Positions 58,833 through 63,737 of a stretch of 64,000 nt of DNA are shown piece after piece. The number at the start of each line of letters is the position of its first letter. Position 1 is the stretch's first letter. The DNA comes from Escherichia coli. Its GTDB lineage: Bacteria > Pseudomonadota > Gammaproteobacteria > Enterobacterales > Enterobacteriaceae. Under the pieces are notes generated by a model that was given only the letters and a program-made list of their open reading frames with translations, was not told where the DNA came from and searched no databases. The position numbers and the translations under genes were made by a program. The DNA is taken from assembly GCA_902500125.1 (NCBI GenBank), contig GCA_902500125.1_4132.1; one strand, 5' to 3'.

Positions 58833-59075
58833 ATGAAAGTACTGACAGAACTAGAAATGTATCATAGATTTAATAAGTACTATCATTTACTTAAGCCTAT
58901 ACAGAGGATTAAATGTCCATTTGAAGAGAAACAGGTATTAATTTATGAGCATAAGTTATTTGTATCATTAGGTACAGATCAACAAGAGTACTATTTGACG
59001 TTGTACTTGATTACATTAATAGATTTAATTTACTATAAAACCAAACAAGCTAATAAAGAGAAATATGAAAACTAA
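58833..59075 (+). CDS. array-2 small paralog
   Basis: Internal Met MKVLTELEMY; SLGTDQQEYYLTLY. Confidence 0.5.
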   Translation: MKVLTELEMYHRFNKYYHLLKPIQRIKCPFEEKQVLIYEHKLFVSLGTDQQEYYLTLYLITLIDLIYYKTKQANKEKYEN

Positions 59076-59409
59076 TATACAACTCAAGGTATATAAATCA
59101 TTTGAACATACATATATCAAAAGTAGTCTATGTAGAGATGTAATGGATTACAAGGGTAAGCCATTCACAATTACTTATGATTCTTATGTTGATGATTTAT
59201 ATATATCATTTGTTAATTACGAAAATAAAATATACAAGCACGTTGATATTAAAGATTTAAGTACTTTATCACCAGAGGAATACTTCCAGGAATCATTAGT
59301 ATGGGATTTAGAGTTCCCTATGCCATTAGTACATAAGATGATAGTACTAATGAAAGAATCTAAACAGGAGCCTAATAGTGCTTATGAAGAACACATTATT
59401 GAGTATTAA
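59065..59409 (+). CDS. array-3 paralog (EEYFQxSL family, 114 aa)
   Basis: LSPEEYFQESLVWDLEFPMPLVHKMIVLMKE. Confidence 0.55.
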   Translation: MKTNIQLKVYKSFEHTYIKSSLCRDVMDYKGKPFTITYDSYVDDLYISFVNYENKIYKHVDIKDLSTLSPEEYFQESLVWDLEFPMPLVHKMIVLMKESKQEPNSAYEEHIIEY

Positions 59410-59779
59410 GAGTACTGATAATATTAAGAGTTATACAAGCTCAAGTACTGTGACAATCGAAGTGAATTCTATTAATGCTGGTAATGCAGTAGATAAGTTC
59501 TTTATTGCTCAAGGGTACAGGAAAGATATTCATCAATATTGTTCAGTATATGGGGAGTACAATAGTACTGAAGATATAATTTATTGGTCAACACATCAAG
59601 ATTATCTAACTAAAATTGGAGTCCCAGATGTTAGTACTTTATCTGAAGAAGAATACTTTCAGTACAGCTTAATATGTGATGTACCTATACCTTTAGGGTT
59701 AATCAAGGGTATACAGGAAGAGGTTCATAAGCTTAAATCCATGAGTAAAGGTACTTTCATTAGAACAGTGCAATACTAG
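59378..59779 (+). CDS. array-3 paralog (133 aa)
   Basis: LSEEEYFQYSLICDVPIPLGLIKGIQEEVHKL. Confidence 0.55.
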   Translation: MLMKNTLLSIKSTDNIKSYTSSSTVTIEVNSINAGNAVDKFFIAQGYRKDIHQYCSVYGEYNSTEDIIYWSTHQDYLTKIGVPDVSTLSEEEYFQYSLICDVPIPLGLIKGIQEEVHKLKSMSKGTFIRTVQY

Positions 59780-59838
59780 CTTGACAGTACTTTTCATTAC
59801 TGATATAGTACACTAACGTTAATCATAGGGTAAAAATT

Positions 59839-60084
59839 ATGTTAAATTTTTTAAATTTCCTTATCGTTTTGTGTATTGTTCTTGGGATTGCACCATTTGT
59901 ATTGTATTTCATGGATTCAGATGAAATGCAGAAGATGAATTGTACAAGGACAGGACAGAGTAGAGAAGAGACGATTCTTATGCCTGTTACGGTTATTGTT
60001 AACAACATGCCCATTACAAACATGGTCCCTACCCTAACGACAACGTACCAGTACTCTTGTGCTGACGGAGAGAGGTGGAGATGA
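59839..60084 (+). CDS. small membrane/Cys-containing protein (81 aa)
   Basis: RBS ATAGGGTAAAAATTATG; hydrophobic N-terminus. Confidence 0.5.
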   Translation: MLNFLNFLIVLCIVLGIAPFVLYFMDSDEMQKMNCTRTGQSREETILMPVTVIVNNMPITNMVPTLTTTYQYSCADGERWR

Positions 60085-60401
60085 AATTTAATATAGCAAA
60101 AACATCGAGTATATGTATTTTTGGTTATGCAGAAGAGTTAGGTGATATTGACATTCTTTTGTACAAAAAGGATGGTGTTATGCATTTCAAGTACCAGGAT
60201 GAAGAGGCAGACAATTATCTTTTACCTAATTTAGTACAAATGCAGGAAGAGGAATTATTCCAGTACAGCTTAGTATACGACATTGATATTTGCACGATGC
60301 CAGTACTAATTAGTATTCAAAAAGTGATGCTCGATATGTATGATAAGCTAATACAAGGTACATCAGGGAGAATCATTGAAATCGATATACAAGACAATTA
60401 A
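60075..60401 (+). CDS. array-3 paralog (108 aa)
   Basis: MQEEELFQYSLVYDIDICTMPVLISIQKVMLDMYDKL. Confidence 0.55.
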   Translation: MEMKFNIAKTSSICIFGYAEELGDIDILLYKKDGVMHFKYQDEEADNYLLPNLVQMQEEELFQYSLVYDIDICTMPVLISIQKVMLDMYDKLIQGTSGRIIEIDIQDN

Positions 60402-61336: not shown

Positions 61337-61540
61337 ATGCAAAAGATTAATACGATAACATTAAATGCATTACAGGATTCATTATTAGATAGTATTAAGA
61401 TGTATTACAATATACATTTGAAGGGTGGTATTGATAATTACGATTATTATTTGAGTTTAATTACATTTGAGCACCTTTCAGTACAGGACAGGATTATACA
61501 TCCTACAAATCCTAGGTATCCATCGATAGGTAAATTATGA
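61337..61540 (+). CDS. hypothetical protein (67 aa)
   Basis: TAATG coupling; ORF track. Confidence 0.5.
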   Translation: MQKINTITLNALQDSLLDSIKMYYNIHLKGGIDNYDYYLSLITFEHLSVQDRIIHPTNPRYPSIGKL

Positions 61541-62085
61541 ATGAGATAGATTTATTAGCACACAAGATAAGTACAATAATGCTTATCCTCAATAACAACC
61601 ATCCTATATCGCAGATAGATGGAATCCTGAGTCAGAGGACAGGTGGTAGTTTATATTTGTCCATAAACGCAGATATCGCAAGGAAATACATTGATATTGA
61701 TGTTGAAATCGAATATGATACAACGGGGATTGTTGATGTAGGAGCATTAATCAGTTCAAATCCAGTATCAGCATCCCCATTGACCAAAGATGTTAGTACA
61801 GGATTCGAAGGATATTTGTGGTACAATACCAATGATGATTATTTTATATATCAGCATTCCAATACAAATTATGATGAAGACAAATTTCAGTTCATAGACC
61901 CTTATGATGAAGCTGAAGTATTTCAAAAATCATTAATCACAAAACCGCATGAGATGATGTATCTAATGTTATTCAGTACAATGCATTTGAATCCATTAAT
62001 TAAAGGTTTAAAATTTTATATTCAATTAAATTTAGTCCATGTAGTTTATGATTTATTAATGCAAGGATATAGTTATGAAGTATAA
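61537..62085 (+). CDS. array-3 paralog (182 aa)
   Basis: ATGA overlap; YDEAEVFQKSLITKPHEMMYLMLFSTMHLNPLIKGLKFY. Confidence 0.55.
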   Translation: MNEIDLLAHKISTIMLILNNNHPISQIDGILSQRTGGSLYLSINADIARKYIDIDVEIEYDTTGIVDVGALISSNPVSASPLTKDVSTGFEGYLWYNTNDDYFIYQHSNTNYDEDKFQFIDPYDEAEVFQKSLITKPHEMMYLMLFSTMHLNPLIKGLKFYIQLNLVHVVYDLLMQGYSYEV

Positions 62086-62386
62086 AATGATGTATACCCC
62101 AGATATGATTTATGTTGAATTAGAAGATGATGACGATGGGTGGAATTTGATTTATTCAAGAAGTTCAGGTTGGTACATGGCACATTTAAATGATTCGATA
62201 GTTACAGATTATTTTGTAGATTTCAATACATTATCCGATGAAGAATTGTTCCAACAGCAATTAGTGATTGACACGGGTGGTTATGATGTCTTATTATTAA
62301 AAAAGATACAAAAAGCTGTTATTGATTTTAAGCCCATGATATGGCAAAGGAAATATTATGACCTCGAAGTACCATACCAGCAATGA
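62075..62386 (+). CDS. array-3 paralog (~100 aa)
   Basis: LSDEELFQQQLVIDTGGYDVLLLKKIQKAVIDF; start 62075 or 62087. Confidence 0.5.
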   Translation: MKYKMMYTPDMIYVELEDDDDGWNLIYSRSSGWYMAHLNDSIVTDYFVDFNTLSDEELFQQQLVIDTGGYDVLLLKKIQKAVIDFKPMIWQRKYYDLEVPYQQ

Positions 62387-62924
62387 AATTCAGTACACCT
62401 ACGCTAATGCAATCCTTATGGGACAAAAGTTAGCTTGTATTGTTGCAGCCTTATATAATGCCCAGAAATATCACAAGCGTCATTTCCACAAATGTATTGG
62501 TATTATTCCATCGAAGTACAATACATATATTGCGTGCACGAGTCATTTTGATAAACGATTCAATACACCTGATACCCCAAATGCCAGTAGTGTTATTGGT
62601 CTTTTGGATTTCGCACCTGGTGCTGTTATTGGAAAGAATGATTTAGAGTACACATGGTATAATAAAAATGCCCCGTTAGTAATGGGAAAATATGATACAG
62701 AAACGAATAAAACAATAGAGTACAATACATATAAATCAGAGGAAGAATTTTTCCAAGGTTCATTGCTTGTACCAGTGCGTTTGTTGTTTTATAATGTCCT
62801 TATTAGTACAGTACACAATAGTCCATTACACAAGAATCACAAAATTAATTTCAATTTTTGTGCTTATGCGATTGATGGTGTGTATGAGTGTTTAATGGAG
62901 GTATTGAGTTATGAAGCTGAATAA
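62358..62924 (+). CDS. array-3 paralog (188 aa)
   Basis: RBS AAGGAAATATTATG; KSEEEFFQGSLLVPVRLLFYNVLISTVHNSPLHKNHKINF. Confidence 0.55.
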   Translation: MTSKYHTSNEIQYTYANAILMGQKLACIVAALYNAQKYHKRHFHKCIGIIPSKYNTYIACTSHFDKRFNTPDTPNASSVIGLLDFAPGAVIGKNDLEYTWYNKNAPLVMGKYDTETNKTIEYNTYKSEEEFFQGSLLVPVRLLFYNVLISTVHNSPLHKNHKINFNFCAYAIDGVYECLMEVLSYEAE

Positions 62925-63252
62925 TACATTTGATATTAATAAGTTAAGAGAATGGTTTTATAGTATTGAAATTGAAGCCATCCCGTATCATAGATATGAA
63001 CAATATAATTTAACCAGTATTGATATCCGTGAGTTGTACGCGTATTATCAAAGTGCATTAGAGATGCATAAGTTATTTTTGAGTACAGATTTTGTTATAA
63101 ATTACAATTTTGAGGAATTTAATAATTATAATTTAGTACAGAAATATGTAGTAGCAAAGTACATGTACCTTCAAGGAATTACAAGTAATTTGGAATTCAA
63201 TACAGTCCTGGCTTTAGTTGAGGTAATTTTATGCAGTACATGTATGATTTAG
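62911..63252 (+). CDS. hypothetical protein (113 aa)
   Basis: RBS GGAGGTATTGAGTTATG. Confidence 0.55.
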   Translation: MKLNNTFDINKLREWFYSIEIEAIPYHRYEQYNLTSIDIRELYAYYQSALEMHKLFLSTDFVINYNFEEFNNYNLVQKYVVAKYMYLQGITSNLEFNTVLALVEVILCSTCMI

Positions 63253-63737
63253 AGTTTAGTTTAGATGCTGCCTTTAAATTTGTTCACAAGATAGAAACAA
63301 TATACAGTACATTATGTGCAATACAATCAGTATCATCTGAGTTTGATGTTGGTGAAAAATATCAGGTATGGAATAATACATTTCTAAACAAAGAACGTTG
63401 CTCTACGGGGTTTAATATTTTAACATTTAATCCCAGCAATTGTTACCCAGAGAAGCATGAACGTTATCCGAATGACGACATGTGGTTTGATTACACAAAA
63501 GATGGTGATATGTCATCCCTTGTAGTTCCTGATGATTTTAATGCCGAAGATTTAACGAAAGAGTGGTGGTTTCAACAGAATTTAGTACACGATGATATTG
63601 ATTTATTTTTTTATGTAGTATTTAAAATGCTTTACCACAACAATATATTAAAAGATAGTGTGTTTTTTTCATGTCTATATATTGATGATTTGTACAATGA
63701 AATCCAAATCAACATGCCCAGAACGCCTGTATCGTAA
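63231..63737 (+). CDS. array-3 paralog (168 aa)
   Basis: RBS GAGGTAATTTTATG; LTKEWWFQQNLVHDDIDLFFYVVFKML. Confidence 0.55.
   Translation: MQYMYDLEFSLDAAFKFVHKIETIYSTLCAIQSVSSEFDVGEKYQVWNNTFLNKERCSTGFNILTFNPSNCYPEKHERYPNDDMWFDYTKDGDMSSLVVPDDFNAEDLTKEWWFQQNLVHDDIDLFFYVVFKMLYHNNILKDSVFFSCLYIDDLYNEIQINMPRTPVS

Follow-up and report, generated by a model that had tools for sequence, protein, structure and literature searches.

Seven open reading frames (ORFs) lying in tandem at 59065-63737 of a 64,000-nucleotide stretch of contig GCA_902500125.1_4132.1 (the window, that is, the whole stretch of DNA analysed), together with one further ORF at 4985-5557, encode a single protein family, referred to here as the FQ family. 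Nucleotide comparison identified the window as DNA of an Asteriusvirus, a RaK2-like jumbo coliphage. The segment 59000-63800 shares 97.8% identity with Escherichia phage vB_EcoM_phAPEC6 (phAPEC6), and also with phages G17, Sharanji and SHEFM2K; in total, 34 Asteriusvirus records match it, and the genes under the match are all annotated as "hypothetical protein". In several other records the alignment is broken into 2-5 pieces, with insertions or deletions. Sequence searches indicate that the family is large, fast-diverging and specific to RaK2-like jumbo phages. It is new and uncharacterised, whereas its general kind, paralog expansion in a jumbo phage, is already known.

The reading that we favour, with confidence that stands at about the midpoint, is that the FQ proteins are early, non-structural small proteins with a shared C-terminal scaffold that would act in host takeover or counter-defence and have diversified by tandem duplication. 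Most jumbo-phage genes have no known function, and here one unrecognised family makes up approximately 38 genes, which amounts to ~8% of a genome of ~350 kb; related phages of Klebsiella and Erwinia carry it too, as do uncultured phages. With many "hypothetical" PHROG families merged into a superfamily that has a defined module, dozens of orphan genes become a single tractable question.

Evidence for a single protein family

The initial annotation had described seven ORFs of 100-190 residues sharing a motif; all seven were recovered on the + strand and contain the peptides quoted for them. Four are short forms, namely A (59065-59409, 114 residues, motif LSPEEYFQESLVWD), B (59378-59779, 133 residues, motif LSEEEYFQYSLICD), C (60075-60401, 108 residues, or 106 with a start at the ATG at 60081, motif MQEEELFQYSLVYD) and E (62075-62386, 103 residues, motif LSDEELFQQQLVID). 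The other three are long forms: D (61537-62085, 182 residues, motif DEAEVFQKSLITK), F (62358-62924, 188 residues, motif SEEEFFQGSLLVP) and G (63231-63737, 168 residues, motif LTKEWWFQQNLVHD), the last being the weakest of the eight proteins. The distant copy that had been proposed at the other end of the window proved to be a real dispersed member, H (4985-5557, + strand, 190 residues), which lies 54 kb from the array, carries LNDEEYFQESIVTEH and has a basic, lysine-rich N-terminus (isoelectric point, pI, 9.1). Each of the eight ORFs is preceded by a Shine-Dalgarno-like sequence 6-9 nucleotides 5' of its start.

Several sequence comparisons bore out the proposal of a shared family. Pairwise BLASTP among the 351 ORFs of the window linked A with B (E-value, E, 1e-6), B with C (3e-4), B with E (2e-3) and A with H (2e-3), and the alignment of D with F (4e-6) spans their full length. 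When profile hidden Markov models (HMMs) were built leaving out one protein at a time, the omitted protein ranked next after the members in seven of eight cases, with E ranging from 2e-10 (member A) to 9e-3; the lowest support was obtained for G (E 0.11). A further profile was made from the four short forms and 25 metagenomic representatives, with D, F, G, H and the orthologs of H excluded. The next-best ORFs of the window were then H (2.3e-7), F (1.6e-5), D (4.2e-5) and G (0.012). Iterated profiles run on a pool of 975 ORFs recovered the same 126-128 proteins from either the short-form seed or the D/F seed. At the level of the C-terminal module of ~65 residues, profiles excluding the protein under test recovered A-F and H, and more weakly G (E 0.012 to 1e-3). 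Member G is further linked to the D/F seed profile at E ~1e-3, to a member from Klebsiella phage K64-1 by BLASTP at E 2e-3 and to other members by common PHROG cross-hits, and through these several independent weak links it is a probable member of the family.

A relaxed form of the motif, E.[hydrophobic]FQ.[SQN][LITC][VIL], matches seven of the eight proteins against 0.01 expected from shuffled ORFs. The pattern as first written matches just three of the eight, the consensus being loose and F and Q the sole invariant positions among the window proteins. The family signature is an FQ pair (8/8) that is preceded by acidic residues, followed by x-[SQN]-[LTI]-[VIL] and placed ~50 residues from the C-terminus.

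The array continues past the window. The N-terminal part of an eighth array member, the ortholog of phAPEC6 gp455c, occupies 63790-64000 (+ strand) and is cut at the window end, so that its motif, EDEYFQYSTVH, falls beyond it. The ORF at 63658-64002 matches its phAPEC6 counterpart, whose E against the core profile is 1.8e-7. Two more ORFs on the + strand are possible remote members. The first (17424-18086, 220 residues, motif variant SSDLMFQYSLIHKD) reaches E 0.05 with the core profile and p 0.005 with hhalign, over the motif only, and its top BLASTP matches are family members, all at E 0.1 or worse. The second (29734-30393, 219 residues, motif variant LTPEEEFMYSTVID) reaches E 9e-5 with the core profile, just 0.076 with the iterated profile, and p 0.003 with hhalign. 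These scores give weak support to both as dispersed members and do not establish their membership.

In PHROGs, the eight proteins are split over families 13866, 33987, 19795, 34516 and 33518, all of "unknown function" (E 4e-40 to 6.5e-133), and weak cross-hits to phrogs 12674, 22855, 15629, 21500 and 29217 link them to each other. A (E 1.9e-7) and C (4e-40) match phrog_13866, E matches phrog_33987 (1.6e-59) as well as phrog_13866 (1.9e-5), D (3e-94) and F (4.9e-85) match phrog_19795, and G matches phrog_34516, its cross-hits to phrog_22855 and phrog_12674 being shared with other members. What PHROGs holds as many separate families without function is here united in one superfamily by a motif and a module. 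The eight proteins gave no Pfam match at E <= 1, and no Pfam family was common to 31 long-form members. NCBIfam returned sub-threshold isolated matches only, and PADLOC, which covers anti-phage defence, just two isolated weak matches, each in a single member. The best hit of the family profile among PDB sequences had an E of 0.089, which gives no relative of solved structure, and matches in BFVD were restricted to uncharacterised proteins of RaK2 and PBECO4.

Searches of the literature with motif strings and for Asteriusvirus paralogs found no account of the FQ motif or family, and paralogs are mentioned there in passing. Approximately 10% of RaK2 gene products have been called paralogues (PMC3622015). 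A published remark on phage 121Q names no array, and its "very similar genes" are fitted better by the LGTxxQE family, described below, than by the FQ family. Tens of tandem paralogs within one genome, ascribed to tandem duplication, have been reported (PMC7824862; PMC5646251); the number is similar here, and the FQ family is a separate one that has no recognisable domain.

Protein architecture and the role of the conserved module

Among 91 non-redundant members, the consensus reads D-[LY]-[ST]-x-[LM]-[ST]-E-E-E-[LYF]-F-Q-x-S-[LT]-[VI]-[YW]-[DE], in which position -4 is E in 72 sequences, position -3 is E in 71, position +3 is S in 79 and position +4 is L or T in 85. The FQ pair is separated from the C-terminus by a median of 50 residues (interquartile range 46-56) and from the N-terminus by 64-135 (10th-90th percentile). 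The proteins consist of a variable, beta-strand-rich N-terminal part of ~60-135 residues followed by the conserved C-terminal module of ~65 residues, and long forms carry an extra N-terminal helix. Most members are acidic, with a median pI of ~4.8 and a net charge of ~-9, compared with a background pI of 6.35. A further trait of the C-terminus was noticed in the family members of the window and of the phage stretches compared with it, phAPEC6 among them: a tyrosine ends 17 of 53 short forms (<=135 residues), typically as ...IEY, ...VQY or ...LEY, and 1 of 56 long forms.

AlphaFold2 models were obtained for C (mean predicted local distance difference test score, pLDDT, 67; predicted template modelling score 0.63) and D (mean pLDDT 60). 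The model of C has four strands, a helix at residues 58-67 that contains the motif and a helix at 75-93; that of D has the motif helix at 125-134, with block means of 92 and 87. In both, beta strands precede the motif helix and a second helix follows it, and the motif helix belongs to the portion modelled with most confidence (block-mean pLDDT 86-92). The module is modelled as the motif at the start of a first helix and then a second, amphipathic helix. The hydrophobic helix that the initial annotation had placed after the motif does not appear in these models, which instead predict a short loop and then the amphipathic helix, not one of membrane type.

By the rules that govern helix starts, L-S-E-E-E-[LYF] combines a hydrophobic staple (L and the aromatic residue) with a capping box (S and the third E), two elements that explain most of the motif's acidic portion. 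The start of the motif is predicted to form an N-capped helix, which F-Q-x-S-[LT]-[VI]-[YW]-D would continue with core residues.

A scaffold is one way to read such a module; the other is that the FQ helix is a docking handle, shared by all paralogs, for a single partner, either a host hub or a phage machine such as the ClpP protease or the transcription apparatus, and the cargo or targets brought to that partner would differ with the variable N-terminus. The block would then be the phage counterpart of the F-box/PRANC and BTB families by which large eukaryotic viruses redirect host machinery. The genome does encode a ClpP-like protease, the module stands at a fixed distance from the C-terminus, and conservation extends to polar positions in otherwise very divergent paralogs, with F and Q invariant and S at +3 in 79 of 91. 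Nevertheless, we consider docking unlikely: generic helix-capping rules account fully for LSEEE[YLF], the motif helix is predicted to pack within the domain, and no partner is known.

The motif also resembles sites cut by Gln-specific proteases of the 3C and tobacco etch virus (TEV) type, and cleavage between Q and x-S in E-E-x-[YF]-F-Q-x-S would release a C-terminal fragment of ~50 residues. The TEV consensus E-x-x-Y-x-Q is satisfied by EEEYFQ, variants of the EVLFQ kind are close to 3C sites, and E-E-x-[YLF]-F-Q as a whole recalls both ENLYFQ|S and LEVLFQ|GP. The FQ motif differs from these sites in the residue after Q, which the proteases prefer small and which is here variable and often bulky (Y in 30, E in 18 and L in 12 of 91 sequences, 60 in all), and in being predicted as a confident alpha-helix (block-mean pLDDT 86-92), not an extended loop. 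Moreover, ClpP and the prohead protease are the only proteases named in the virion table and in ~90 kb of the annotation of the 353-kb phAPEC6 genome. A role as 3C/TEV substrate was rejected on the first two grounds and is very improbable.

Equally improbable is an origin of the module from, or mimicry of, a segment of the host class I adenylate cyclase (CyaA residues 211-277). Residues 38-104 of member A (59176-59376) align with residues 211-277 of Escherichia coli CyaA with 28 of 71 identities (39%; 33.9 bits, pairwise E 9e-7) over a stretch that includes LS.LS.EEYF..SL, CyaA itself carrying LSSLSAEEYFGASLW, and NCBIfam CyaA profiles match A at E 0.002. However, the extended similarity is restricted to A and its ortholog, and the NCBIfam match amounts to 16 bits against a curated cutoff of 1316. 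CyaA was dropped as a family-level relative, since comparison with the family profile gave an hhalign probability of 17.6%, the converged profile scored -0.4 bits and the cutoff was missed by far. The likeness between A and CyaA probably reflects a generic helix-cap motif common to both; there is no structure of a class I cyclase with which to compare it. Direct tests thus disfavour the cleavage-site and the CyaA-derived readings, as they do the packaging of the proteins in the capsid considered below.

Extent, distribution and evolution of the array

The seven ORFs first described as an array are real and are merely the portion that lies inside the window. In phAPEC6, approximately 38 members occupy 289331-318006, i.e., 28.7 kb of the 352.6-kb genome, and from gp455c to about gp404c the motif is found in almost every downstream gene. 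Of this tandem block of ~38 genes, the window holds the first seven and part of the eighth. One of the phAPEC6 genes, gp447c, is annotated in GenBank as "amidohydrolase 3", yet its product is an FQ-family member (motif LDDAALFQAALVFD, E 1.4e-6), which makes the annotation a probable error. In phAPEC6 1-25000, where the flanking region is otherwise collinear, no ortholog of H was detected; H may be variably present among phages or located elsewhere in phAPEC6.

Similar blocks are present in relatives. Klebsiella phage K64-1 (Alcyoneusvirus) has 26 members within a 40-kb stretch, and in a 24-kb metagenomic contig 32 of 37 ORFs of at least 90 residues are members (16.8 kb read). The Erwinia jumbo phage Hallingskeid was matched by a consensus-like member in a tblastn search. 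When 1.84 billion representative proteins were searched exhaustively, only 33 clusters were returned at E <= 0.001, all of small motif proteins. A word-indexed protein search recovered almost solely orthologs of B and C, and a scan of IMG/VR, in which confirmation was by the first sequence alone, confirmed only 121Q. On these results, the family is confined to this phage lineage, with Asteriusvirus, Alcyoneusvirus, an Erwinia relative and uncultured relatives as the carriers.

Comparison with 121Q showed purifying selection on the members, the ratio of nonsynonymous to synonymous substitution rates (dN/dS) being 0.29-0.73 for the six shared members. Divergence is uneven along the array. Member B is absent from 121Q, in which no ortholog is annotated between genes 342 and 343, and E shares 59% amino-acid identity with its 121Q counterpart (synonymous divergence, dS, ~1.0), whereas the adjacent F and G share 98%. 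This mosaic pattern points to gene loss and to allele replacement by recombination. Between paralogs, DNA similarity is limited to a motif-coding stretch of ~58 nucleotides with 60-74% identity, which argues that the duplications are old.

These data also bear on whether the copies have specific functions at all. Under a capsid-size ratchet (Hua et al., 2017), they would be near-neutral tandem duplicates that fill a large capsid, each with little specific function, as might be suggested by the gain and loss of copies from strain to strain and by the dN/dS of 0.7 for C and F. Several observations are hard to reconcile with this proposal, which we judge slightly less probable than the docking handle discussed above. 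Indeed, phages of Escherichia, Klebsiella and Erwinia, which belong to different genera, all retain the family and its motif, each with tens of intact copies; dN/dS is below 1 in six of six pairs; open frames and ribosome-binding sites are kept in all copies; and the confinement of paralog DNA similarity to the motif indicates duplicates that are old yet retained.

Genomic context, predicted expression and proposed role

The FQ block lies in a region rich in promoters of host type. Taking a match at 11 or more of 12 positions as a near-consensus sigma-70 promoter, the + (coding) strand of the window has 32 such sites where 2.25 would be expected, and the - strand has 6; perfect 12/12 promoters (TTGACA-16/17-TATAAT) account for 13 of the 32 and fall mostly within 32.7-51.3 kb. 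Three near-consensus sites on the + strand occupy gaps in the array. That at 57569-57597 is upstream of a transcription unit running into A and B, that at 59781-59809 (TTGACA-17-TATAGT, with an extended -10 TG) lies in the gap after B, and that at 63763-63791 (TTGACA-17-TATCAT, with TG) is just 5' of the next member, following a hairpin and T-run, resembling a terminator, where member G ends (63725-63746, + strand). In the gap after B, directly downstream of the promoter at 59781, an 81-residue ORF with a hydrophobic N-terminal segment (59839-60084, + strand; phrog_8826) stands within the array; it is not a family member.

The FQ proteins could instead be packaged in the capsid and injected with the DNA, like the internal proteins of T4 or the inner-body paralogs of phiKZ. 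The L-S-E of the motif fits the L-x-E site of the T4 prohead protease, whereas the promoters are of the early sigma-70 type. The phAPEC6 capsid does contain an inner body (PMC7247149). However, none of the products gp404c-gp466c is among the 62 phAPEC6 virion proteins identified by mass spectrometry (PMC7247149, Table 1). Internal proteins were rejected on this result, 0 of ~38 members being present in the virion, and have very little probability left.

The preferred reading, that of diversified early effectors, joins these observations as follows. Host sigma-70 RNA polymerase would transcribe the FQ block early, and the products, small and mostly acidic, would be kept in the cell, presumably in the cytoplasm, instead of entering virions. 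All paralogs would share the conserved module as their scaffold, and a hypervariable N-terminal surface would give each its own host target in takeover or counter-defence. The block would have expanded as tandem copies arose and diverged; some strains would have lost genes or had alleles replaced, and selection would have kept the family. Comparable regions of related phages are, by prediction or measurement, early and reliant on the host polymerase: in CBB, RpoD-like promoters cluster across a block of small genes that is predicted to be early (PMC5259590), and in PA5oct, terminal-repeat genes are highly transcribed at 5 min and rifampicin stops phage production (PMC7318152).

Several points weigh against this proposal. 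No experimental or homology-based functional annotation was found for any member, and for that reason the effector role is argued from context and analogy. The literature yielded no Asteriusvirus transcript data, so timing is deduced from promoter sequences and distant relatives, and two promoter-like sites of the array, at 61043 and 62268, fall inside genes. A dN/dS of up to 0.7 in some members is compatible with weak constraint. A pure scaffold role does not account for the invariant polar Gln, and confidence in the structural models is low to moderate (mean pLDDT 67 and 60), with the variable N-terminal parts poorly modelled.

The effector proposal nevertheless has parallels. The hyperplastic regions of T4, the pre-early genes of T5 and the terminal-repeat genes of PA5oct are cases in which large lytic phages group small early genes into arrays. 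Like the FQ block, they consist of one-directional, small, overlapping genes of no known function near a genome end, with host-type promoters and products outside the virion; unlike it, they comprise mostly unrelated genes, whereas the FQ block has ~38 neighbouring paralogs whose early timing is deduced. Host-range multigene families and "gene accordions" of poxviruses offer an analogy for tandem expansion, gain and loss between strains, and the combination of a conserved module with a variable part. They bear no sequence or fold relation to the FQ family, whose host-range or counter-defence role is putative. If the FQ proteins are indeed diversified early effectors, many activities directed at host takeover or counter-defence could be drawn from the block, and such a battery could help to explain how these therapy-candidate phages handle many hosts.

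The position of the block in the genome was deduced from relatives. The close relative vB_Ec-M-J has an annotated direct terminal repeat of 21,525 bp, the inner end of which corresponds to window position 53090; the other end falls near 31.6 kb of the window, a position derived from the repeat length and not aligned directly. Since the vB_Ec-M-J record ends in sequence matching window 53090, the window is taken to span a genome end of the linear virion DNA. The FQ array begins ~6 kb past the terminal repeat, after the array of LGTxxQE genes, a location that counts indirectly in favour of early transcription. Downstream of the block, phAPEC6 encodes a Dam methylase, an RNA ligase, a polynucleotide kinase, a DNA ligase, protein phosphatases and ClpP.

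Two other gene arrays were observed in the window. The LGTxxQE family (phrog_4148) comprises proteins of ~72 residues with an L-G-T-x-x-Q-E motif, in 27 copies at 53188-60830 on the + strand. Its array starts ~100 bp beyond the position matching the vB_Ec-M-J terminal-repeat boundary; 25 copies are contiguous at 53188-59075, and the remaining two, at 60376-60594 and 60564-60830, are interleaved within the FQ array. On the - strand, an array of RCC1-repeat genes occupies ~20000-32000, where the GC skew flips. The RCC1-repeat genes of phAPEC6 are the "DNA condensation" virion proteins gp003-gp010, and vB_Ec-M-J has 13 such genes in a row.

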